Source: a virus. Taken from it: 43,102 nt of DNA. Location of the stretch: IMG/VR virus record IMGVR_UViG_3300045988_138808; one strand, 5' to 3'. The position numbers and the translations under genes were made by a program. The notes under the pieces are model-generated. The model was not told the origin of the DNA. It made no database searches and saw only the letters and a program-made list of their open reading frames with translations. Positions within the stretch are counted from its first letter, which is position 1, and every line of letters starts with the position of its first letter. This document shows, in pieces, positions 640 to 39,004 of the stretch.

Positions 640-1080
640 TTATCTCGGTTGAATATTGTTTTTGTGGAAATAATCCTCAACATCGGACACGCTTTTTGCC
701 ACGATATAATGGTGTCCGGGCAGTTTTTCAATAAGGGCTTGAAATTCTTTTTGCTCATCGCTCTGCGTTCCGGCTCGCTCATCAATGACCATGCGTTTGT
801 ATCTATCGCTCCAACGATATGTTGCTGGCTTCTTACATTCTATGCAGACGGTGCCGCCGTTAATCCATACGATTAAATCGGCGATTCCTGCCCGCCTACC
901 CATTGATTTTAATATTGCCCTAGTTACCCTACTTGAAACATTAACACCCGCGTCAGGAGCTGTAAAAACAAAGCCCCTGAGCTCCAAATATTGAACGATG
1001 CTTTTTTGAACCGGTTGTTCCGGGTGTGTATGCTTCCTTTTTGGCTTCATTCCCAGTTCTGGGATGTTAAACAAGCTCAT
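640..1080 (-). CDS. VRR-NUC domain nuclease
   Basis: The motif GIADLIVWINGGTVCIECKK fits the PD...(D/E)xK core of VRR-NUC. I prefer the ATG at 1078..1080 (MSLFNIPE...), which follows a purine-rich RBS, over the track start at 1167. Confidence 0.7.
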   Translation of the reverse strand: MSLFNIPELGMKPKRKHTHPEQPVQKSIVQYLELRGFVFTAPDAGVNVSSRVTRAILKSMGRRAGIADLIVWINGGTVCIECKKPATYRWSDRYKRMVIDERAGTQSDEQKEFQALIEKLPGHHYIVAKSVSDVEDYFHKNNIQPR

Positions 1081-1227
1081 TTCTTCTTTCTTCCAAAAAT
1101 AAAAGCAAAAATCAAAAATGTTATAACGATTGCGAGGTCGTCCGGATGCTCCCCGAAGTATTCGCATAATTCCAAAAGTGTACTTTTATTGTTCATTACT
1201 CATTCTCCCAAGTTTCGCACAAATATT

Positions 1228-1255
1228 AAAAAGTGGGGAGCCGGTAAAACTCCCC
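1228..1255 (-). terminator. Rho-independent terminator after recT
   Basis: The minus strand reads GGGGAG-TTTTACCGG-CTCCCC (plus-strand stems at 1235..1240 and 1250..1255), followed by ACTTTTTAATATTT. Confidence 0.55.
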
Positions 1256-1262
1256 GGATTGA

Positions 1263-2117
1263 TTAAAATGATATTGTTTGTTGTTGCTCTGCTGGTTCTT
1301 CCGGTGCCTTTGGTTCTTCCGGCTCCGGTTCTTCTATAATCTCGCCGGTTTTCTCGTCAAAGGTGGGGATTTCATCATCCAGCGGCAAGGCTTCATAGTC
1401 GGCTTCAACATAGCCCTGTTGCGGTTGCTTTGGCAGCTCATATTCTTCATTGTCAATATCAATGCCTTTTTGCAGTTCGGGGCTTAATGGCAGCCATTTG
1501 GACAATCTTTTGAACACTGTTTTTTTCGACATTTCATCCCGGTCGGTTACCCACGGGCCATTGTTCGGAGATTTTGAACGCTTGCGGATGGCATCAACCT
1601 CATCTTTGCTCATAACCTCGCATTTCTTGGTGCCGTCCTTAAATGTAACAATTGCATAATATGCGTAGGCTTCCCCTCTGGGCTTGCGGAAGTCAATGCG
1701 GTGTTTGGTGATTTCGCCGATATTGTATTCAAATTCGTCATTCTCGCATACTTTGTCGGCATGAATGTTGCTAATCATACCGCTACGCATAGCAAGCTCG
1801 GCAATGCCTTTATAATCAATAATAAGTTGAATGTCGTTTTTGTAGGGGATTAAATAAGCTCTGCGGCCGTCTGGCTCAATGCCAAGCTCGGCACATTTCA
1901 TAAATGCTTCGGCAAGGCTTTTTTTTCCCTCTTTTGTTTGCAATGCCAAAATCAATTTGCTGTTCTTTTTAATGCAGGTTACTGCCACTCTGGCAAATCT
2001 TTCCGGGGTGCAAATCTTTGGCAAAACTCGAACCCAACCGGCCGATAATTCATCCACATATTTTTGAACAACGTCAACCTTTTTTGTTTCTTGAACTACT
2101 GGAACATTTTCCGTCAT
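1263..2117 (-). CDS. recT: RecT-family single-strand annealing recombinase
   Basis: GIEPDGRRAYLIPYKNDIQLIIDYKGIAELAMRSGMISNIHADKVCENDEFEY matches the RecT core. The C-terminal tail is acidic and Pro/Glu-rich. An AGGAAA RBS precedes the start. Confidence 0.88.
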   Translation of the reverse strand: MTENVPVVQETKKVDVVQKYVDELSAGWVRVLPKICTPERFARVAVTCIKKNSKLILALQTKEGKKSLAEAFMKCAELGIEPDGRRAYLIPYKNDIQLIIDYKGIAELAMRSGMISNIHADKVCENDEFEYNIGEITKHRIDFRKPRGEAYAYYAIVTFKDGTKKCEVMSKDEVDAIRKRSKSPNNGPWVTDRDEMSKKTVFKRLSKWLPLSPELQKGIDIDNEEYELPKQPQQGYVEADYEALPLDDEIPTFDEKTGEIIEEPEPEEPKAPEEPAEQQQTISF

Positions 2118-5832: not shown

Positions 5833-6457
5833 ATGTACGTAACTCCAAACTATTATTTTTTATAAACTCATCTCTCTTAACAACAGCTTCTTCATATGTA
5901 TCAAAACGGCCAACATAAATTCCCCTTACTTGAACTTGCCAATTTTTACCTCTTTTATGAAAAGCTATGTATTTAGATAGCTTAGGACGCCTGTTGTTAT
6001 TTTGCTCTTTTACGGTTGCCCATCTACAATTGTTTGGCTCATAATTTCCATTAACATCTATTCTATCAATAGTTAATCCATTTGAACGACCCATGTCTGC
6101 GATAAAATTATCAAAACTCTCTAACCATCTGTCACAAACTTTTATCCCTCTACCACCATAATCCATATAATGATGCTCTCTTTTATTTTTGCATCTCTGA
6201 ATCATTCCGTTATATATCCCATATTCAGGCATATCTTTTCTAAACTCTCCAAATAATTTATTCTTTTTATTTTCTACAGCACATTTTCTACACCCGTTAG
6301 TTTTTCCCCTCCTCATCTCATTGCCGCTAACAACTTGTTTAGCTCCACAAGAAACACACTGACACAAAAAAGCCGGTCTACCATATAAATTTCCGCAACG
6401 CTCTAAAACAAGCCAGTTGCCAAAACTCCTACCAATCATATCTATAGGTTTATTCAT
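5825..6457 (-). CDS. Free-standing HNH homing endonuclease with an AP2-like DNA-binding domain
   Basis: [29 protein letters not shown] is an HNH_3-type motif. [34 protein letters not shown] resembles AP2. The N-terminus carries CxxC pairs. The gene sits between the holin and the endolysin. Confidence 0.8.
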
Positions 6458-6546
6458 TTTATATCTCCATATAAAAAACTCATTAAACTAATCGTGGCAG
6501 GATTGTGAGTTGCAATCTTTTCGGGAGCGACCCTAGCCACAAAAAA

Positions 6547-6574
6547 ATTATAATTTATAAGAATAAAAAGTCAA
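6547..6574 (-). promoter_or_regulatory. Sigma70-like promoter, TTGACT-16-TATAAT, upstream of the HNH and endolysin genes
   Basis: The minus strand reads TTGTTGACTTTTTATTCTTATAAATTATAATTTTTTTG. A GTGGC...GCCAC structured leader follows at about 6494..6540. Confidence 0.4.
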
Positions 6575-6643
6575 CAATCCTTCATTCATGACCAATCTTT
6601 TTAATATCTCGTCCATAATCCCTCCAATCAAAAAAGCCCGAAT

Positions 6644-6958
6644 TTAATCGAGCTTATCTTTTATCTTGTCAATTACAATATCAGGATTTTGTTCGACTCT
6701 TTTCAAAATACTTTCAATTATCATATAAATCCTTACAGCAAACAAGCCGACAATCCCCGAAAAACCAACTTTGACGCTATACGGAATTTCGACATACTCA
6801 AGCAATAAGCCTGATAACATTGAAAACACAAACGATATTGAGGCATCTCTTATTAATTGCTTTACTGATACAAATGGTTTAATTATCACTGATACACCTC
6901 CGATAAAAAAGCCGACTATTGCATAATCCTTGATTGTTTCTCCAATATCCTTAAACAA
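6644..6958 (-). CDS. Putative holin (three TM segments)
   Basis: The protein is 104 aa, with hydrophobic segments YAIVGFFIGGVSVIIKPFV, ISFVFSMLSGLLLEY and VGFSGIVGLFAVRIYMII and a charged C-terminal tail. It uses a TTG start with a GGAGAG RBS and heads the lysis cluster. Confidence 0.55.
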   Translation of the reverse strand: MFKDIGETIKDYAIVGFFIGGVSVIIKPFVSVKQLIRDASISFVFSMLSGLLLEYVEIPYSVKVGFSGIVGLFAVRIYMIIESILKRVEQNPDIVIDKIKDKLD

Positions 6959-7044
6959 TTTTACTCTCCGGTTTTTTATTTTACCCCCTGTATAAAAGAT
7001 AAACTAACGAGGGCGGACTTGTCAACCAGATTAAACTTTTACAT

Positions 7045-32805: not shown

Positions 32806-34228
32806 TCGGCTTAGCTCCTATGGTATCAATTACTCGGTCGGTTTCATCTCTCAGGCTTGGAATATCGGAGCCGTCAATCATTTCTTCTCGGTCTTCGTCA
32901 TATTCATCAATATCAAGCTCAATATCAAGAATTTTCTTGCTGTTGATTTCTTCGGCATATTGCTTATCGCTGATGATGCCGTCTTCTTTGAACTGACGGA
33001 GTATGTCGGCTCTGGTCTTGTCAACGGTTGCTTGGTCCATTTTGTTAATGTTCCAAAGCGGCTCAAAATCAAGCTCTAAGTTTTGAGATTTTTCCGTCCA
33101 AACATCAAAGCCCCAAATGCAAGATCCAATGATGTCAAGCATCTTGCGATATTTTGGCTCAAGGCGTGTTGTTTGATAGCTGTCGATGTTGTTGTAGTAG
33201 TTTTCAAGGTCGCTTTCTCCGGTCGCACTCAAACCATCGGGAGATTTCCCCAAAAAACGAGTTGCCGGAATATCAGAGCCGGCCGCAAGGATTTGCAGGT
33301 AAGTGTTCAAAAGCTCCGGCACACTTCCAAATGTTGCGGAGTGCTGGGCTATCTCTGTTCCTTTGCCGTCAATGACCGCTCCACGGTATATGCTCAGTTG
33401 CTCGGCAATTTTATCGAGCATGTTTAATGCGGCATTGCCTTGCTTGGTGCTTTGCAAATCAATAAAACGCTCACATTTTACCAACAACACGCTGGCAAGG
33501 TTTACGAGGTGATATGCGCCCTCTTGCGTTCCGGTTGCACGAACAAGGCTGTCATATACTCTGGACAACACGCTCTCGCCAAAGCCTGCCGGATTGTAGC
33601 GGAAGTTTTGCATAAGGTTCATGGATGTGTGATTAAATAATGGGTCGCCATCAAAGACAATTAATCGGCTGACGTGGGTCTTTATGCCGTTTATCATGTA
33701 ATATTTCGGCTTGTCATATTGCGGACTGAATACGTCTGTTTCATATTCGCATTTTGTGATTTTTTCTGTACTAATGACATTTAAGAAAGAAATATCGCTT
33801 TTTTTAAGAGTTTTAAGATTCAAAACTTCTTCGGGGCTGTCGTTTTCATCTTTAACGCCAATAACAATGACGCAACCACCAAGCAATCTCTCTATGGTGG
33901 CCGCACGCTTAAAGTTGTTGTTTACATCGAGATATTTCATATATCTTTCGATGGCTTCAATGTCCGGTTGTTCTAGTCCGGTAATCTTTACCGGAATACG
34001 GAATGCATCCTGAACCGGAATATCCACAATTTTTCCGGCCTCCCAACTGGTATTGTACCAACGCACCCACTCTTGCCACCGGCTGTAAAAGTCGTTTCGA
34101 TAATATGGGTTGCGCGTGTATATGGCGGCCGTTTGCAGGCTTCCGCGGTCTTGTTTTGTGTTTGCACCGGCTCCGGTCAAAATGGTATTAACAACTTTTT
34201 GCGATTTTCTTTTGTTTCTTCGTGTCAT
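32765..34228 (-). CDS. Portal protein (DUF1073-like, from recollection)
   Basis: The 487-aa ORF lies immediately after TerL. The N-terminal region reads WQEWVRWYNTSWEAGKIVDIPVQDAFR and the C-terminus is acidic. Confidence 0.8.
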   Translation of the reverse strand: MTRRNKRKSQKVVNTILTGAGANTKQDRGSLQTAAIYTRNPYYRNDFYSRWQEWVRWYNTSWEAGKIVDIPVQDAFRIPVKITGLEQPDIEAIERYMKYLDVNNNFKRAATIERLLGGCVIVIGVKDENDSPEEVLNLKTLKKSDISFLNVISTEKITKCEYETDVFSPQYDKPKYYMINGIKTHVSRLIVFDGDPLFNHTSMNLMQNFRYNPAGFGESVLSRVYDSLVRATGTQEGAYHLVNLASVLLVKCERFIDLQSTKQGNAALNMLDKIAEQLSIYRGAVIDGKGTEIAQHSATFGSVPELLNTYLQILAAGSDIPATRFLGKSPDGLSATGESDLENYYNNIDSYQTTRLEPKYRKMLDIIGSCIWGFDVWTEKSQNLELDFEPLWNINKMDQATVDKTRADILRQFKEDGIISDKQYAEEINSKKILDIELDIDEYDEDREEMIDGSDIPSLRDETDRVIDTIGAKPNVDSGVKQETGQG

Positions 34229-34240
34229 TTTGTTTTTCCT

Positions 34241-37200
34241 TTATTGTCCGCCCCCAGCATATCGCCAAATTGAATGTGCCATTGATGCGGCATCACAATT
34301 TGATACTAAAATATTATTTGCATAATAGCAACCAGCTCGAACTGTTATATTATAAACCCTTTTCTTTTGCTTTCCTGCGTAGTTCTCTTTTAAGGTACTT
34401 ATCTCGACACCATCGACATATTGTCTGCTCTCTGTGGTCGTTTGGGGTATTAAATCTTCTTCCGCAATCGGGACATATTTTAGTAATATGAAGTTTGGCA
34501 ATGTATTCTTTTTGATGTTTTGAGTGCCAATCTCTTCCCTCTTTTGAGCGATGCCACTCTTTGCACATTTCTCTACCTCTTTTATTTGCTTCTTGCATTT
34601 CAGGTCTTTTCCAAATTTCAGCGGTTTTTTTGCCATGAAGTTTAGCGTGTTCGCTGTGTGATAAAAGCACCAAATTGCTAAAGTCGTTATTATCTTTATT
34701 TTCGTCTTTGTGATGAACGTGATAGCCTTTAGGAATTTCTTTTCCCGAATAAAATTCATAAACAACCCGATGAAGCCGGAATGTTTTTCTTTTTCCGTCA
34801 GCAAAGATTTTATTTTCATAATATCCTGTCTTTGGGTTACGATAGTATTTTTTGCCATTGAACAGTATAAAGATTTTATTTGCCATGAGATTAATTCCTT
34901 TATGGTCAACTTGCTAACCATAGAATAATCAACATTTTCAAGGTTGTCAAAAGAATAGTCGTGTGTTGTATATATTTTGTGGTCTTTAGTTCCGGTTAAT
35001 CCAATATTATCAATAACCGGCTTCATTCTGCTTGTTGTTCGTGTTATTGGAGAAACACCCCAAGGAGTTATGACTAAATCACCAACTTTTAATTCCTCTA
35101 TATTTTTATTTCCCAAAATTGTGGCTACTTTTGTTCCTGCAACAAAACAGCTGTCGTCGTGCGCGTGCGACATGTCTTCGGCAAACAATGCCGCTTCATT
35201 GACTAGATACTGGCTCATTTTATCATCTTTTTTCAATTTTACAAGACCACGATAAACATCCCATGAAAGCTCTCTTGTTCTGCCTACCTTGTCCTCTGGG
35301 TAGTCATATTCTTTTGGCTTCCAACAAATGGCATTGATGCCAGATTGGATGAGCGTTTGCTCCAAGCTGATTCCTGATGCCTTGTCTTCAATGTACATAA
35401 ATGCGGCCGGATTAATTAAGCTGTCGTCCGTCCACTTCCGCCATATCTGAATGGCTTTTTCCAAAAGTTCGGGGAATTCCCACTTGCCGACAATCATATC
35501 ACGCAAACGCATCTCTTTGCGTAAAAGCTCCCAAACTTGGAAGCATGAATAGTCGGCGGTCTTGGTCTTTTTGTATGCGGTGTCGGCCGTTATTATCAGT
35601 TTGCCATCAATTGCGGTATGGTCGGCATCGTACATTACCCACCAATCACGTTGGATGATGTTTCCTTTTTCGGCTACCGGCGATTGCTGATATTGTGCTT
35701 GAAACATGGTATCATTGAATGAGATTTCTTTGATACGCTCGGGGGTGTATTGACTGGCGATGTTGCAAGTGCCGTCCGGCTCAAGCAACGGGCGTATAAT
35801 GCTGTCGAATTTGTATTGCTCAAGCAAATATCCGGATAAGTCTTCCAGATGGAGCCTTTGCTGAATGTTAAATATCGGCACGTTACTATCGTTCAAGCGT
35901 GAGAGCAAGGTTTCATCGTAATACTTGCGGACTTTTTCGCGCATAACCTCAGATTGAATGTCGGCTGGCTTGTTGGCATCATCGCAATTAGAAACTAATA
36001 CTTGACATTTACCAACATACAGATTATGATTTTCATACACAGTAAGACAATAAGAGGTGTGATTATGACAAACAACGCTAATATTATTTACAAAGACATC
36101 CCCGGATATGATGGACTTTATAGAGTTTCCAATTTTGGAGATGTTATAAGCTGCTCTAGAGATGTATTTACGGGAAGCGGAGATAAAAGAAGAATTATTA
36201 AGCTCAAAGAAAAACGACTTAATCCCTCTAATAGAAAAGGTTACAAGGTTGTTAATCTTCGAAAAGATAATAAAACCCTTACCATTGGTGTTCATCAACT
36301 TGTTTTGTGGGCTTTCGTTGGCGTGCAACAAAAAGGAATAGAAGTTAGACACCTTAATAGCAATCCATCTGACGATCGTCTTGAAAATTTGCGATATGGC
36401 ACTAAATCGGAAAATATGCAAGATGCTGTTGAACTTGGTACTTTGGTTTTTTCTCGTTCCAAACTTTCTCGAAAAGATGTTGAAGAAATTGCTAAAGCAA
36501 AAGGAAGTTTGAAAGAGATTGCTCTTGCTTTTAATTGTCATCCCGGAACTGTTCAAGCAATCAAAACAAGAAAAAGTTTCAAAAATTTTGTTAAAGAAAT
36601 TAACTATACGCCCAGAAAAAAGATTGAACTTTCTTCTGATGCTTTGGAAAAAATCAGAGATAAGAACATTCCCAGACAAGAAGTTGCAAAAATTTTTAAC
36701 CTTAGTATTAACCAAATAAAAAGGATTAGAAAAGGTAACAACACAATCTATACTTGTTAAATCCTTTGCTTCAACATAGCCCCTATTCTTTGTCCATACT
36801 TTGTGATTATCTGTGCAAATAAAGCTCTTTCCATTACTTAATTTGACTTCAACAAAGCATTGTTTAGTAGGGGTTATGTTTTTAATATGTCTTTCTATGC
36901 GTTTAAGCTCTGGTCTTTCTTTCTCAAAATTATAACTCCAAACTTTTATATCCTCTTTATTTTCAACAATTTCGCCAATCTTTCTATATCCTTTTTCCGT
37001 TAAAACTAATTCGTCGTACGGAAAACAGATTAACGCCCCGGAGAAGCCTTTTGCTCCTCTTATTCCGCAATTATGAACCAATATTTGACTTTTGGTTACA
37101 AATAGGTTATTGTTGCGACATAAGGTAACACAATAACTGGGGGCGCTATGATTACAGTTGACAATATTGACTATTTTCCTATTCCCGAATTTATTAGACA

Positions 37201-38077
37201 TTATTTCGCTACCCACGGATAAAAAGTCGGCTCTCCGCTCCTCTCCGTTTTTCAAATAAAAGACGTGGTCAGGCGTGCAGTTTATTTTTTCTCCGTTGTC
37301 TAGCTCAACCTTTATATAGGGCGAATTTTCGTTTTTGACATAATCGTATATTGGCTGCAACTCTTTCTGCCTTTTATCAAAATTATAGCTCCAAACTTTC
37401 ACGTCTATTTTGTTTTCTACAATATATCCGAGTTTCATAAATCCCTTTTCTGTTAAGACTTCTGTGTTATAGTCAAAACAGCCAAACCCGGTGATTGTCG
37501 AGCCGATGGACGCAAACAGAATTTGTCCGCCTTTTGCGGTGATGATGCGTTTGCTTGCATATACCGCCTTGCCGGTTTCTTTCAAGAGATATTCTCGCCA
37601 AAAGTCATCAATCGGGTTCTCTTCTTTTTCTTCAACGCCGAACAAGCCGCTACCGTATAGCTCTTTGTATATCGGATGTTCTAAAATCTGAGCCACTTCT
37701 CTGGCAATGTCTGACAAGAGCATTTGCGAGAATGATGTATAAATAAAATTACACCGTGGGTTTTTGGTTAGGCAATAAATGAGCCAATATTTGCAGAGGG
37801 TTGTTTTTCCGGCGCGGGGCGGGATGTTCATACATTCACGGGTTATTCTCAGGTTGTATAGGTCATCAAAAACATTGAACATATCCTTGTGGATACGGTC
37901 CATGATGAAAGGCTTGCCCTCAAGAACTCGGAACATATAACGAAACCAAACCTCAAAACCTGTATCAAGCAATGTCTTGCCTAGATATTCCCGATTGATT
38001 TCGCCCGATAAAACGGTATTATTTTTTTGTTCCTTTTTGGGGCTTGCTTGTTTTTTCTGTTTTTGACTGGCCATCAT
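34241..38077 (-). CDS. terL: Terminase large subunit precursor (1278 aa) containing three inteins. The predicted spliced product is 510 aa.
   Basis: A Walker A motif, PPRAGKTT, occupies residues 86-93. After removing the inteins, a Walker-B-like GALI-CDDANKP is restored, and the nuclease motif HAHDDS-CDAASMA is restored. The exteins are residues 1-199, 337-350, 698-976 and 1261-1278 by my count. Confidence 0.9.
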   Translation of the reverse strand: MMASQKQKKQASPKKEQKNNTVLSGEINREYLGKTLLDTGFEVWFRYMFRVLEGKPFIMDRIHKDMFNVFDDLYNLRITRECMNIPPRAGKTTLCKYWLIYCLTKNPRCNFIYTSFSQMLLSDIAREVAQILEHPIYKELYGSGLFGVEEKEENPIDDFWREYLLKETGKAVYASKRIITAKGGQILFASIGSTITGFGCFDYNTEVLTEKGFMKLGYIVENKIDVKVWSYNFDKRQKELQPIYDYVKNENSPYIKVELDNGEKINCTPDHVFYLKNGEERRADFLSVGSEIMSNKFGNRKIVNIVNCNHSAPSYCVTLCRNNNLFVTKSQILVHNCGIRGAKGFSGALICFPYDELVLTEKGYRKIGEIVENKEDIKVWSYNFEKERPELKRIERHIKNITPTKQCFVEVKLSNGKSFICTDNHKVWTKNRGYVEAKDLTSIDCVVTFSNPFYLVNTKVKNFCNFLSGNVLISDFFQSIRRKFNLFSGRIVNFFNKIFETFSCFDCLNSSGMTIKSKSNLFQTSFCFSNFFNIFSRKFGTRKNQSTKFNSILHIFRFSAISQIFKTIVRWIAIKVSNFYSFLLHANESPQNKLMNTNGKGFIIFSKINNLVTFSIRGIKSFFFELNNSSFISASRKYISRAAYNISKIGNSIKSIISGDVFVNNISVVCHNHTSYCLTVYENHNLYVGKCQVLVSNCDDANKPADIQSEVMREKVRKYYDETLLSRLNDSNVPIFNIQQRLHLEDLSGYLLEQYKFDSIIRPLLEPDGTCNIASQYTPERIKEISFNDTMFQAQYQQSPVAEKGNIIQRDWWVMYDADHTAIDGKLIITADTAYKKTKTADYSCFQVWELLRKEMRLRDMIVGKWEFPELLEKAIQIWRKWTDDSLINPAAFMYIEDKASGISLEQTLIQSGINAICWKPKEYDYPEDKVGRTRELSWDVYRGLVKLKKDDKMSQYLVNEAALFAEDMSHAHDDSCFVAGTKVATILGNKNIEELKVGDLVITPWGVSPITRTTSRMKPVIDNIGLTGTKDHKIYTTHDYSFDNLENVDYSMVSKLTIKELISWQIKSLYCSMAKNTIVTQRQDIMKIKSLLTEKEKHSGFIGLFMNFIREKKFLKAITFITKTKIKIITTLAIWCFYHTANTLNFMAKKPLKFGKDLKCKKQIKEVEKCAKSGIAQKREEIGTQNIKKNTLPNFILLKYVPIAEEDLIPQTTTESRQYVDGVEISTLKENYAGKQKKRVYNITVRAGCYYANNILVSNCDAASMAHSIWRYAGGGQ
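34298..35149 (-). mobile_element. Intein 3 (284 aa) in the TerL nuclease motif
   Basis: It starts CFVAGTKVATILGNKNIEELKVGDLV (block A). Block B is TGTKDHKIY. It ends KRVYNITVRAGCYYANNILVSN, followed by Cys+1 (CDAAS). The boundary codons were checked on the sequence: TGT at 35147..35149, AAT at 34298..34300, TGT at 34295..34297. Confidence 0.8.
34350..34886 (-). CDS. HNH homing endonuclease encoded in the -1 frame inside intein 3
   Basis: LHRVVYEFYSGKEIPKGYHVHHKDENKDNNDFSNLVLLSHSEHAKLH is an HNH motif. The C-terminal CPDCGRRF...CRWC is a zinc ribbon. It has its own ATG, with AAGGA about 10 nt upstream, and its own stop. Confidence 0.8.
   Translation of the reverse strand: MANKIFILFNGKKYYRNPKTGYYENKIFADGKRKTFRLHRVVYEFYSGKEIPKGYHVHHKDENKDNNDFSNLVLLSHSEHAKLHGKKTAEIWKRPEMQEANKRGREMCKEWHRSKEGRDWHSKHQKEYIAKLHITKICPDCGRRFNTPNDHREQTICRWCRDKYLKRELRRKAKEKGL
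36002..36030 (+). promoter_or_regulatory. Sigma70-like promoter TTGACA-17-TATGAT for the antisense HNH gene
   Basis: TTGACA lies at 36002..36007 and TATGAT at 36025..36030. AAGAGGTG then precedes the ATG at 36065. All three elements lie inside the minus-strand intein coding sequence. Confidence 0.55.
36065..36760 (+). CDS. NUMOD4-HNH-NUMOD1-type homing endonuclease, antisense within intein 2
   Basis: IYKDIPGYDGLYRVSNFGDVIS resembles NUMOD4. HQLVLWAFVG...VRHLNSNPSDDRLENLRYGTKSENMQDA is an HNH_3 motif. Two HTH-like segments follow: LKEIALAFNCHPGTVQAIK and RQEVAKIFNLSINQIKRIR. I prefer the ATG at 36065, which has a strong RBS, over the track TTG at 36002. Confidence 0.85.
   Translation: MTNNANIIYKDIPGYDGLYRVSNFGDVISCSRDVFTGSGDKRRIIKLKEKRLNPSNRKGYKVVNLRKDNKTLTIGVHQLVLWAFVGVQQKGIEVRHLNSNPSDDRLENLRYGTKSENMQDAVELGTLVFSRSKLSRKDVEEIAKAKGSLKEIALAFNCHPGTVQAIKTRKSFKNFVKEINYTPRKKIELSSDALEKIRDKNIPRQEVAKIFNLSINQIKRIRKGNNTIYTC
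37070..37480 (-). mobile_element. Intein 1 (137-aa mini-intein) in the TerL ATPase domain
   Basis: It starts CFDYNTEVLTEKGFMKLGYIVENKIDVKVW. Block B is CTPDHVFY. It ends SYCVTLCRNNNLFVTKSQILVHN, followed by Cys+1 (CGIRG). The boundary codons were checked: TGT at 37478..37480, AAT at 37070..37072, TGC at 37067..37069. Confidence 0.8.
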
Positions 38078-38483
38078 TTAATACTTCTTGAATATGCTTG
38101 ATGATATTGTTTTGGTCTTGCTCGGTAACAAAGACAGTTGATTGCCCAAGGTTGCCGCTTATGACCTGCTCCGGCATCTCTCCGGCCGTATCTCTCACAA
38201 ACTGAGCCGCTTTTACATCTTGGTCTTTTATCGCCTTGTCGAACATAGCCATTGCCAACACCATGCCATTGGTCAAATCTTCCGGGTTGATTTCGGGGAA
38301 TAGCTGTTTTGACTTTGCAGCGATGATTTCGTGCGGTTTCATCTCAAGCAATGCCTGTGTCAGTTCTTTCAGGCTTTTCTTTCGTCTTCTGGCATCGGCT
38401 GATGCTTTGCCGCCCATAGAACCATAAAAGTGAGCTTCTTCCGAGGTGTAGACTTTTAGTGTGTTCTTATTTCCTCTTGCCAT
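38019..38483 (-). CDS. terS: Terminase small subunit (putative)
   Basis: The ATG at 38481..38483 follows GGAGG (MARGNKNTLKVYTSEEAHFYGSMGGKASADARRRKK...). The gene lies directly upstream of TerL and overlaps it. Confidence 0.6.
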   Translation of the reverse strand: MARGNKNTLKVYTSEEAHFYGSMGGKASADARRRKKSLKELTQALLEMKPHEIIAAKSKQLFPEINPEDLTNGMVLAMAMFDKAIKDQDVKAAQFVRDTAGEMPEQVISGNLGQSTVFVTEQDQNNIIKHIQEVLNDGQSKTEKTSKPQKGTKK

Positions 38484-38521
38484 AATTTCCTCCAATATTA
38501 CTATATAAACCCGATAAGATT

Positions 38522-39004
38522 TTACAAAATATTCAGGTGCATGATGTCTGACACGGCGACAAAACCGAGTTTTTGATGTGCTCTTTTGCTGGCTTTATTC
38601 ACTTTAAACACCCCAGACACAATCCGCTTATACCCGATTTGCTTTGTAAATATCTTTAAGCGTTCAATCATTTCTTTATACACGCCCTTTCTTCTGAACT
38701 CGGGCATTGTGTAAACATGGCAAGCCCAAACTTCCTTGGTCGGGTGTCCGAACCCAACCGATATAAACCCGATGACGCGGTTATTAATATCTTGGGCGAC
38801 AACATAGATTTGCGTTTCGTCCGCAAAGTCTTCTTTTGGCATGTTGCATATTTTGGATATTTCCTCAAGATAATCTTCTTTAAGCTGGTTAATTTGGGCT
38901 AGCATGTTTTTGTCTTTGAGGTTGTTAAAGATTGAAGCCTTAAATATCAAAGGTTCTTCAAGTGCGTATTTGTCCGGATTAACGTCTTCTTCTTTTTCAA
39001 GCAT
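38522..39004 (-). CDS. GNAT-family N-acetyltransferase
   Basis: RVIGFISVGFG...VYTMPEFRRKGVYKEMIERLKIFTKQIGYKRIVSGVFKVNKASKRAHQKLGF fits the GNAT acetyl-CoA motif A (R/Q-x-x-G-x-G/A type). I prefer the ATG at 39002..39004, which follows GGGGGG. Confidence 0.8.
   Translation of the reverse strand: MLEKEEDVNPDKYALEEPLIFKASIFNNLKDKNMLAQINQLKEDYLEEISKICNMPKEDFADETQIYVVAQDINNRVIGFISVGFGHPTKEVWACHVYTMPEFRRKGVYKEMIERLKIFTKQIGYKRIVSGVFKVNKASKRAHQKLGFVAVSDIMHLNIL

Follow-up and report, generated by a model that had tools for sequence, protein, structure and literature searches.

The window analysed here is a 43,102-nt stretch of DNA from a gut-metagenome phage. It contains a gene for the large terminase (TerL) in which three inteins together account for 768 of 1278 residues (60%), and the spliced-out TerL is 510 residues long. 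The central parts of inteins 2 and 3 are occupied by HNH genes that are read antisense or out of frame relative to TerL. The positions of all features are listed in Table 1. The initial annotation, made from the sequence alone, had described the reading frame, its three inteins, the Walker A motif and the 510-residue extein product; its coordinates proved exact, and its size and percentage were reproduced.

Table 1. Features of the TerL locus (positions in the window; sites a, b and c are numbered as in the spliced TerL, and arrows mark splice junctions)
Feature	Position	Strand	Basis or remarks
TerL precursor gene	34241..38077	-	1278 codons + stop; ORF list, Pfam and PHROG matches
Extein 1, aa 1-199, Walker A PPRAGKTT	37481..38077	-	PHROG TerL match on aa 38-199
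Intein 1, 137 aa (aa 200-336), site a G199↓C200	37070..37480	-	mini-intein without endonuclease
Extein 2, aa 337-350, CGIRGAKGFSGALI	37028..37069	-	invariant R203 and G204, Walker B strand
Intein 2, 347 aa (aa 351-697), site b I213↓C214	35987..37027	-	Pfam Intein_splicing match on aa 358-689
Extein 3, aa 698-976	35150..35986	-	PHROG TerL match on aa 698-975; Terminase_6C
Intein 3, 284 aa (aa 977-1260), site c S492↓C493	34298..35149	-	Hint_2 match
Extein 4, aa 1261-1278, CDAASMAHSIWRYAGGGQ + stop codon	34241..34297	-	
HNH_A, 231 aa, NUMOD4 + HNH_3 + HTH	36065..36760	+	codon-aligned antisense within intein 2
Promoter-like TTGACA-17-TATGAT for HNH_A	36002-36030	+	11/12 consensus
Shine-Dalgarno AAGAGGTG for HNH_A	36052-59	+	sequence
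HNH_B, 178 aa, HNH_3	34350..34886	-	TerL frame -1, within intein 3

The assignment of the gene to TerL, already made in the initial annotation, is supported by PHROG, Pfam and structural matches. PHROG terminase families match the exteins (E 2e-65). Terminase_6C matches the spliced sequence with an E-value of 8e-5, and only with intein 3 taken out does the match run end to end (profile positions 1–152 of 155). The extein sequence and the extein profile gave no TerL match by sequence in the PDB. Solved TerLs were found only through the predicted structure: the model of an intein-free allele matches D6E (5oea, E 1e-12), T4 gp17 and HK97 in Foldseek, with E-values from 1e-12 to 1e-9. The protein has the TerL fold, and in addition to Walker A it shows the Walker B motif ALI(I/C)DD and an RNase H-like C-terminal nuclease. 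Extein 3 comprises the two Walker B aspartates, what is left of the ATPase domain and the greater part of the nuclease domain. The best relatives among cultured phages are only 30% identical, and megablast of the gene against GenBank phages gave no match.

The junctions read ITGFG↓CFDYN...ILVHN↓CGIRGA for intein 1, SGALI↓CFPYD...VLVSN↓CDDANK for intein 2 and AHDDS↓CFVAG...ILVSN↓CDAASM for intein 3. Each intein begins with Cys1, contains the TxxH motif of block B (TPDH, TDNH and TKDH, respectively) and ends in Asn followed by a +1 Cys (HN↓C, SN↓C and SN↓C), all as noted in the initial annotation. The penultimate residue of an intein is usually His; only intein 1 has it, and the Ser at this position in inteins 2 and 3 is conserved across both families. 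Hint-type profiles match all three segments. PF14890 Intein_splicing is found in intein 2 (E 3e-21) and intein 1 (E 5e-11), PF01079 Hint in intein 1 (E 2.9e-8), and PF13403 Hint_2 in intein 3 at 26.4–26.9 bits, slightly below the cut-off of 28.4. The closest solved structures to intein 1 are DnaE-type mini-inteins (E 2e-5), and intein 3 minus its nested part has no significant match among PDB sequences. These features support the prediction that all three segments are class 1 inteins. A class 3 assignment, prompted by an F:4 Cys that is conserved in inteins 1 and 2 and their relatives (SYCLTV, SYCVTL), was rejected: class 3 requires Trp at B:12 and Thr at G:5 and usually has no position-1 nucleophile, whereas these inteins have Phe or Val at B:12, Val at G:5, and Cys1. 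A split intein or fractured gene was likewise rejected, as the precursor is a single ORF of 1278 codons.

All three sites adjoin invariant TerL residues (alignment A1), which agrees with the earlier placement of the inteins in active-site motifs. Site a has G199 on one side and R203/G204 on the other. Site b directly precedes D215 and D216 of Walker B, and site c lies inside the HDDS↓xD motif of the nuclease domain, between D490/D491 and D494.

Intein 2 has splicing blocks at both ends; in the middle, ~231 codons are HNH_A read antisense. The middle part of intein 3, 178 codons long, is HNH_B read in the +1 frame. These nested stretches are not intein-coding in origin. The TerL frame stays open through both endonuclease ORFs, which lie between the splicing blocks, as in non-canonical inteins. 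Both nested genes had been overlooked in the initial annotation. The linker that the TerL frame encodes across HNH_A is 231 residues long and rich in Phe, Ser, Asn and Ile; it could impede folding. The single-sequence AlphaFold model of intein 2 has a pLDDT of 33.8 and is uninformative as to fold and linker. In intein 1, what remains of an HNH gene is a piece of its 5' end in antisense orientation; the long form of this intein, with the antisense HNH gene present, is found at locus L006.

HNH_A is an intact ORF and the only long plus-strand gene of the window. Its domains are matched by Pfam with E-values of 2e-11 and 1e-10, PHROG HNH families match with 1e-41, and R108, H109, N121 and N130 are invariant among 33 relatives. 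HNH_B has the core motif HVHHKD...N...H and is matched by Pfam HNH_3 (E 3e-16) and PHROG HNH (E 3e-28). With an HNH core including His and Asn in both, and with the NUMOD4 and HTH modules of HNH_A, these proteins are predicted to be HNH homing endonucleases similar to I-HmuI. HNH_A matches I-HmuI itself (PDB entry 1U3E, E 3.6e-9), the HNH nicking homing endonuclease encoded by a group I intron of Bacillus phage SPO1. The two proteins align over the NUMOD4-like N-terminus and the HNH core; unlike intron-encoded I-HmuI, HNH_A lies antisense in an intein and has two extra HTH modules.

The promoter-like element and the Shine-Dalgarno sequence of HNH_A are embedded in the codons of blocks F and G of intein 2, and the former is the best promoter match of the 4.6-kb region. 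Both hexamers are kept in the divergent allele L011. Because they overlap conserved intein codons (xQ, NHN), this conservation may stem from the protein rather than from transcription. A similar element is located 34 nt 5' of the ATG in L006, L019 and L029; the survey covered these three loci and the window, as the automatic choice of start codons is unreliable in about half of the loci. For HNH_B, a ribosome-binding site (AAGGA) and, at 34950-34922, a TTGACA-17-TATTCT element were identified.

In other metagenomes, alleles of 92–98% identity have two of the inteins, one or none, always at exactly the junctions seen here. The combinations seen are no intein, intein 1, intein 2, intein 3, inteins 1 and 3, inteins 2 and 3, and the long form of intein 1 with intein 3. 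The initial annotation had proposed comparison with intein-free terminases as a check, and each segment is precisely absent from close homologues. P0022 and P0024 (475 aa, 94% identity), together with another 33 homologues that lack inteins (58–64% identity), align without gaps across the junctions, and the absence is exact at the DNA level. Since close natural alleles lack one, two or all segments at these junctions, the pattern is far beyond chance. In P0024-type DNA, site b reads ...GCGTTAATC↓ATAGATGAT... and site c reads ...GACGACAGC↓GTTGATAGTGCA...; intein-free alleles differ by few bases at the insertion sites. The one earlier claim that fails concerns the +1 Cys, which had been read as part of the restored native motifs. 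Intein-free alleles have Ala200 (31/35), Ile214 (28/35) and Val493 (30/35) instead.

Each intein is always accompanied by the same short extein flank and the same non-native +1 Cys codon. Between the window and an allele with intein 1 only (L004), there are 25 differences in 1533 extein nucleotides, and 23 of them cluster at sites b and c. Intein 2 is identical (347/347 aa) in most carrier alleles, whose exteins differ by 2–5%. A deletion variant without the HNH catalytic core and with a mutated -35 element occurs in six contigs. The sampling of gene presence is biased toward alleles with intact ORFs. The triple-intein protein was found, identical over 1278 residues, in two independent ENA assemblies (contigs of 43 kb and 28 kb).

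The reading frame under selection changes along the gene. In the Hint-only parts, 24/35, 9/13 and 21/27 substitutions fall on TerL codon position 3, and substitutions in intein 1 are enriched at this position as well; the Hint parts are under purifying selection. Within the nested parts, substitutions concentrate at the wobble positions of the HNH frame: 54/94 for intein 2, and 21/42, 9/13 and 6/10 for intein 3. Over their shared region, HNH_A is 87% conserved and the TerL frame 75%, and at the distant locus L015 HNH_B is 72% conserved versus 52% for the TerL-frame reading of the whole intein 3. The openness of the TerL frame was assessed by exact calculations. None of the three antisense HNH genes tested has a TTA, CTA or TCA codon, and the probabilities of an open TerL frame are 1.5e-4 (HNH_A), 4e-4 and 1.6e-3. 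All 15 nested relatives are free of these codons, whereas 31 non-nested relatives (GC < 0.5) have 3.4–4.7 of them per 100 codons and none of the 31 has zero. For the -1-frame type, the probabilities in four diverged lineages are 0.07, 0.027, 0.0024 and 0.29; in intein 3 alone, the open frame is marginally unexpected (P 0.06–0.07).

Both nested layouts recur in very different TerLs, including those of cultured, viable phages: E. coli phage BUCT618, C. difficile phage phiCDHM19 and a Rhodobacteraceae phage. These cultured phages encode one TerL each, in which the same intein types are found as single copies. At identities of 41–45% (antisense type) and 39–72% (-1-frame type), the relatives still have intact HNH ORFs. 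Free-standing relatives are also found. One in L017 is 50% identical to HNH_A, and another in L100, 53% identical to HNH_B, lies directly 3' of an intein-free TerL, ~20 codons from site c; relatives of HNH_B are positioned between TerL and portal. Apparent splits of TerL in L018 and L019 are gene-calling artefacts, with ORFs of 826 and 834 codons reading through. The nested-endonuclease layout, a rare one, proves to be widespread in phage TerL genes, where it goes unannotated.

Our preferred reading, to which we assign a probability of about 0.85, is that the gene encodes a TerL precursor with three class 1 inteins that were gained through separate homing events, and that the HNH genes nested in inteins 2 and 3 are maintained by selection. 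We infer splicing because TerL is essential, the Hint parts are under purifying selection and cultured, viable phages carry the same intein types. Each Hint domain would excise itself after translation by an acyl shift at Cys1, trans-thioesterification to the +1 Cys and Asn cyclisation, and the 510-residue product would keep three Cys 'scars', A200C, I214C and V493C. Inteins 2 and 3 are non-canonical, with endonucleases encoded by separate HNH genes between splicing blocks B and F. HNH_A would be expressed from its own promoter and ribosome-binding site on the opposite strand, in codon alignment with TerL, and HNH_B from an internal ribosome-binding site on the same strand in frame -1. Selection preserves the HNH proteins and separately keeps the TerL frame stop-free, so that the out-of-frame translation would be a mere linker. 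The presence/absence polymorphism, the identical intein 2 in diverged exteins and the co-converted flanks point indirectly to homing. The HNH enzymes presumably cut or nick, near sites b and c, the intein-free TerL of phages that infect the same cell; in the course of repair the intein would then be copied together with its endonuclease gene, the Cys codon and a short stretch of flanking extein. Intein 1 would be a deletion derivative of a paralogous intein with an antisense HNH gene.

The alternative that survives best, itself improbable, is that the nested HNH ORFs are decaying passengers. Inteins 2 and 3 would then amount to mini-inteins with a junk linker each, and the intact HNH ORFs and the open TerL frame would be recent accidents. 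The deletion variant in six contigs is consistent with decay, as is mini-intein 1, which is such a remnant. However, the concentration of substitutions at HNH wobble positions, the intact ORFs of far relatives in very different TerLs and the identity of intein 2 across diverged exteins all argue for maintenance. Slightly less probable is that the triple-intein gene is a non-functional pseudogene in a defective phage or arose as a chimera during assembly. With inteins making up 60% of its length and with long, hydrophobic nonsense linkers, this TerL does look hard to mature, but the same protein occurs in two independent assemblies, double-intein combinations are found elsewhere, the Hint parts are under purifying selection, and cultured phages have these intein types in their sole TerL.

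We consider it just as doubtful that the nested HNH proteins act in DNA packaging rather than homing, like the HNH terminase partners of cos phages. HNH genes beside terminase genes are described in PMC3592412 as packaging components, and the position of HNH_B relatives between TerL and portal would fit such a role. Near-identical phages, however, lack either or both HNH genes, so these genes are dispensable, and their presence is strictly tied to that of the intein. HNH_A, moreover, resembles the intron homing nickase I-HmuI and has NUMOD4 and HTH modules, which are typical of homing enzymes. RNA splicing of the inserts as group I or II introns, of which such HNH genes are typical phage passengers, can practically be dismissed: no Rfam family matches positions 33800-38600 at E-values up to 1, the reading frame is continuous, and Hint blocks with Cys1 and Asn↓Cys, matched by Pfam Hint and Intein profiles, bound every insert.

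Related arrangements have been described. Antisense and out-of-frame endonucleases were reported in 2025 for inteins of actinobacteriophages (Gosselin, Arsenault and Gogarten, bioRxiv 10.1101/2025.01.02.630785), with antisense LAGLIDADG and VSR-like genes, an EndoVII-like gene in frame 3, and HNH only as an in-frame domain; an earlier antisense LAGLIDADG gene, in the DnaX intein of Synechocystis, is cited there (Gorbalenya 1998). As in the present case, an endonuclease gene of the free-standing type lies between the splicing blocks in another frame or strand, and the intein frame is open. Many of those inteins are in TerL, and they are proposed to have arisen when a free-standing endonuclease gene invaded a mini-intein. 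The genes described here belong to none of those nested types: an antisense NUMOD4-HNH-HTH gene and a -1-frame HNH gene, both HNH_3 in Pfam, are present in one TerL, and the nested-HNH inteins occur in non-actinobacterial phages. Searching the literature for inteins with an antisense HNH gene yielded no relevant report, and the codon-avoidance and frame-specific selection statistics for nested inteins are new. Fractured genes, in which a free-standing endonuclease gene lies between the halves of a split intein (Dassa et al. 2009, as cited in the same preprint), are similar in that an endonuclease gene of this kind invaded the intein at the usual endonuclease position. Unlike fractured genes as presented in that source, the host gene here is unsplit and the precursor frame reads through the endonuclease gene.

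The inteins of mycobacteriophage TerLs (Kelley et al. 2016, PMC5050341) are likewise located at functional motifs, one of them (TerL1-e) at Walker B. Their splicing has been demonstrated by experiment, as has cleavage of intein-free TerL DNA by two of them, TerL1-b and TerL1-c. All of them are in the ATPase domain, and the text of that paper does not mention two or multiple inteins per protein; here there are three, one of them in the nuclease catalytic motif, and the HNH genes are separately encoded. Two inteins in one TerL have been reported for another human-gut phage, the crAss-like Delta-group contig OBYQ01000140 (Yutin et al. 2021, PMC7886860). Those are Hint-Hop inteins, a different type, and no nested out-of-frame endonuclease is described for them. 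We found no report of three inteins in one TerL in the literature.

One phage population displays all stages of endonuclease-intein association. An HNH gene may stand free next to its target, or be nested in an intein, antisense or in another frame, where both reading frames are then under selection; in further alleles the HNH gene is deleted or only a mini-intein is left, and intein-free alleles may bear Cys 'footprints'. These intein-free alleles supply natural homing substrates, and BUCT618 and phiCDHM19 supply cultured models. Gene callers hide the nested genes or fragment TerL, and such elements are therefore systematically missed in phage annotation. On balance, we lean toward the view that the TerL genes of unrelated phages host two old, stable and unannotated HNH/mini-intein lineages in a durable dual-coding partnership. 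In one lineage, at Walker B, the NUMOD4-HNH gene would run antisense in codon alignment, with its promoter and ribosome-binding site in blocks F and G; in the other, inserted at the nuclease HDD↓xD motif, the HNH gene would occupy frame -1. Collaborative homing is known between group I introns and free-standing endonucleases, and these lineages would be its intein counterpart rather than a brief step toward inteins of the split or canonical kind. If so, the triple-intein allele illustrates independent stacking of such lineages in one essential gene. Maturation of the essential packaging motor would hinge on three splicing reactions at its ATPase and nuclease centres.

The 1278-codon ORF of the large terminase (TerL) is present in the ORF listing of the window and carries three inteins at the residues proposed by the initial annotation. 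When the translation is cut at these residues, all three segments are bounded by Cys1 and (H/S)N/C (the slash marks the junction), each contains a TxxH block B, and the Pfam models Intein_splicing, Hint and Hint_2 match them. Removal of the segments reproduces the predicted 510-aa product. The exteins are matched by PHROG terminase families, and Terminase_6C aligns end to end only with the spliced sequence. Two database relatives, P0022 and P0024, are insert-free and align without a break over residues 36–510. The exact triple-intein protein is found in two independent ENA assemblies, so the gene is not an assembly artefact; the sample name of ERZ28660179 suggests a human gut metagenome. An intron reading was rejected, being without support because the region gives no Rfam match. 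The observation is genuine and the intein interpretation holds, with splicing, endonuclease expression and cleavage as predicted activities of the locus. TerL relatives in databases have three called starts, at residues 1, 36 and 48, and we favor the upstream ATG since conservation with homologues of 58–64% identity starts near residue 26. Upstream of the terminase genes, close relatives vary (L008, the window, 1041–1787 versus L010:1–721 and L100:300–1094), with an N6/N4 DNA methyltransferase in the window and an S-adenosylmethionine synthetase gene in other alleles.

Features of the TerL locus and of related loci
Feature	Position	Strand	Length	Characteristics
TerL precursor ORF	34241-38077	-	1278 codons	
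Intein 1	aa 200-336		137 aa	ITGFG/CFDYN...ILVHN/CGIRGA; block B TPDH
Intein 2	aa 351-697		347 aa	SGALI/CFPYD...VLVSN/CDDANK; block B TDNH
Intein 3	aa 977-1260		284 aa	AHDDS/CFVAG...ILVSN/CDAASM; block B TKDH
HNH_A	ATG 36065 to stop 36760	+	231 aa	NUMOD4, HNH_3 and HTH modules
HNH_B	34350-34886	-	178 aa	HNH_3, E 3e-16; frame -1 relative to TerL
HNH_A promoter-like element	36002-36030	+		TTGACA-17-TATGAT
Upstream ORF	38019-38495		158 aa	Probably small terminase; overlaps TerL start (38077) by 59 nt
Intein 2 deletion variant (L012-L014)	Intein 2 region 999-1703			P0069, 698-aa TerL
Triple-intein protein, ERZ28660179	scaffold_680		43,110 bp	
Triple-intein protein, ERZ1689228	NODE_749		28,318 bp	
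Escherichia phage BUCT618			TerL 789 aa	...FGG/C...VVSN/CIIIDDPHK; antisense HNH
Clostridium phage phiCDHM19			TerL 799 aa	...KHDDA/C...LVSN/CDATTG; HNH in same -1 frame
Rhodobacteraceae phage				-1-frame HNH layout as in phiCDHM19

In structure comparison, the model of the intein-free allele resembles solved large terminases (D6E, 5oea, E 1e-12; T4 gp17; HK97). The insertion sites were positioned on an alignment of 35 intein-free homologues, whose numbering plus 35 gives the extein number. Site a (intein 1, G199/C200) is between invariant G199 and R203/G204, site b (intein 2, I213/C214) is directly ahead of invariant D215/D216 of Walker B, and site c (intein 3, S492/C493) is between D490/D491 and D494 of the HDDxxD nuclease motif. 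R203 is a candidate arginine finger, judged by its spacing to Walker B. The +1 cysteines are non-native: intein-free alleles have Ala (31/35), Ile (28/35) and Val (30/35) at sites a, b and c. Cysteine replaces the usual Ala or Val in 4/35 intein-free homologues at position 200 and in 3/35 at position 493. Such alleles may have lost an intein precisely, leaving a footprint, or may be pre-adapted for invasion.

Two HNH genes inside the inteins were overlooked by the initial annotation. Because the genes are nested, intein 2 consists in its central 231 codons of the antisense reading of HNH_A, and intein 3 includes 178 central codons that are the +1 reading of HNH_B. HNH_A scores E 2e-11 and 1e-10 with Pfam and 1e-41 with PHROG, and among solved structures it is closest to I-HmuI, an intron homing nickase (1U3E, E 3.6e-9). 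All 38 window ORFs that span 120 codons or more, selected as non-overlapping, are on the minus strand, which makes HNH_A the sole long plus-strand gene. Its region has the lowest GC of the window (0.327 at 36001–37000). Cumulative GC skew falls monotonically across 1–43102, and positions 6001–7000 combine low GC (0.338) with the strongest skew (-0.41).

The codons of HNH_A are in exact antisense register with those of TerL, so a TerL stop can arise only from TTA, CTA or TCA in HNH_A. None is found among its 18 Leu and 16 Ser codons. At genome usage (TTA 0.215, CTA 0.045, TCA 0.189), 7.7 stops are expected and the frame would be open with a probability of 1.5e-4; the corresponding values are 4e-4 for L011, a divergent allele of intein 2, and 1.6e-3 for the HNH gene of the long intein 1. 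HNH_B, which is free of this constraint, uses such codons for 3/10 Leu and 3/6 Ser. Their count is zero in 15 nested relatives and in none of 31 non-nested relatives (GC < 0.5), which have 3.4–4.7 per 100 codons. For the -1 frame, synonymous-codon permutation in four diverged lineages gives P(open) of 0.07, 0.027, 0.0024 and 0.29, values that are singly weak and jointly persuasive.

Substitution patterns change where the genes overlap. Between the window and L011, substitutions in the two Hint-only parts of intein 2 fall mostly at TerL codon position 3 (24/35 and 9/13), while 54/94 in the nested part are at TerL position 1, the wobble position of HNH_A. Residue differences number 29/231 in HNH_A and 57/231 in the TerL-frame reading. 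Intein 3 shows the same frame switch in three comparisons, from TerL position 3 in the Hint part (21/27, 9/12 and 19/26) to position 2, the HNH_B wobble, in the nested part (21/42, 9/13 and 6/10). In the distant locus L015 (exteins 56–64% identical), HNH_B is 72% conserved, compared with 52% for intein 3 as a whole when read in the TerL frame; the TerL ORF there remains uninterrupted.

The promoter-like element of HNH_A is the top sigma-70-like match (11/12) in the 4.6-kb region and is followed by AAGAGGTG and the ATG. Both the element and AAGAGGTG sit within the codons for intein 2 blocks F and G. The -35 and -10 hexamers are kept in L011, and a comparable element is found 34 nt upstream of the ATG in loci L006, L019 and L029. 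Since the hexamers overlap conserved intein residues, we infer their promoter role with caution. For HNH_B, the signals are an AAGGA ribosome-binding site and a 10/12 promoter-like site. Position 4 of block F is Asp in most class 1 inteins. Cys is kept there across the whole Walker-B intein family (SYCLTV, SYCVTL, TFCLEV etc.), as seen in intein 1, intein 2 and relatives (window about 36040–36060 and 37100–37130). The neighboring codons double, on the opposite strand, as the 5' untranslated region and ribosome-binding site of the HNH gene.

The extein search gives 1364 relatives. Among the best 120, mapped onto the extein, those with 92–98% identity fall into discrete length classes, with intein 1, 2 or 3 alone or inteins 1 and 3, besides the insert-free class. 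IMG/VR adds L007 with inteins 2 and 3, and L006 (TerL 1122 aa) with a long-form intein 1 and intein 3. Among the matches listed, about 35 more homologues (58–64% identity) have no intein, and four of about 61% identity have a relative of intein 3 at the identical site. Intein 2 is identical (347/347 aa) in most carrier alleles, whose exteins differ by 2–5%. The extein DNA of the window and of L004, an allele with intein 1 only, differs at 25/1533 nt; 13 of these differences occupy the 27 nt preceding site b and the +1 codon, and 10 are within 12 nt of site c. In the multi-allele alignment, alleles that carry a given intein all have one short flank and one Cys codon in common, and all non-carriers have another version there, as expected for homing with short co-conversion tracts. 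This indicates that the triple allele is an L004-like backbone with two more invasions.

Inteins 1 and 2 are paralogues (43% identity across the first ~110–115 residues). The long intein 1 of L006 also houses a NUMOD4-HNH gene in antisense. This gene is distinct from HNH_A (33% identity), shares its codon register, and has an ATG that faces the same His codon of block F. Mini-intein 1 is a deletion derivative, since its antisense strand retains the coding sequence for the first 15 HNH residues. An intein 2 variant found in different samples, on six contigs, lacks HNH_A residues 62–168, the catalytic core; its TerL frame is open and its -35 TTGACA is changed to TCGACA, Gln to Arg in block G. 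Free-standing relatives of HNH_A and HNH_B are found in L017 (50% identical) and L100 (53%), respectively; the L100 gene directly follows a TerL without inteins, at a distance of about 20 codons from site c.

A full-length HNH_A-type match is codon-aligned antisense in all 13 IMG/VR loci having one, each nested in a TerL ORF of 680–900 codons whose intein lies at Walker B or a few residues from it. Two more metagenomic TerLs (826 and 834 aa), split by gene callers, share this layout. In the records of three cultured phages (BUCT618 and phiCDHM19, both in GenBank, and the Rhodobacteraceae phage) the HNH match is under a feature labelled only 'terminase large subunit'. BUCT618 and phiCDHM19 appear from their records to be propagated isolates, and therefore TerL maturation through such inteins must work there; this is the strongest indirect indication of splicing. 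Gene calls differ among loci. The window has TerL called whole and its nested HNH genes unlisted; L018:1993–4473 and L019:1975–4479 have only an HNH gene and a C-terminal TerL fragment despite ORFs of 826 and 834 codons that read through. Gene calling in a distant phage (L102:684–3023) breaks a putative TerL into parts of 131 and 395 aa that flank a NUMOD4-HNH gene; an intron or a fractured gene may explain this arrangement. An Intein_splicing match is also seen in a downstream Mu F-like head protein (636–639 aa; L101/L102:5234–6645).

Inteins in TerL are well documented, one of them at Walker B, and they splice in reporter constructs; those of mycobacteriophages are in the ATPase domain in every case, and the text does not mention two or multiple inteins per protein (PMC5050341). 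One crAss-like genome has a TerL with two inteins (PMC7886860). We found no report of three in one TerL in the literature searched, which is incomplete, so an earlier mention is possible. Splicing occurs in in-frame HNH_3 inteins (PMC6293099). Antisense or out-of-frame endonucleases in inteins were described in 2025 as LAGLIDADG, VSR-like and EndoVII-like, with HNH solely as an in-frame domain (10.1101/2025.01.02.630785), whereas the nested genes here are HNH, in the antisense or -1 frame; the same incomplete search gave no report of such HNH genes. This rare type of intein architecture was recognised recently; the locus represents a variant of it, stacked three times over in a single essential gene, and the population-level evidence points to homing that is ongoing.
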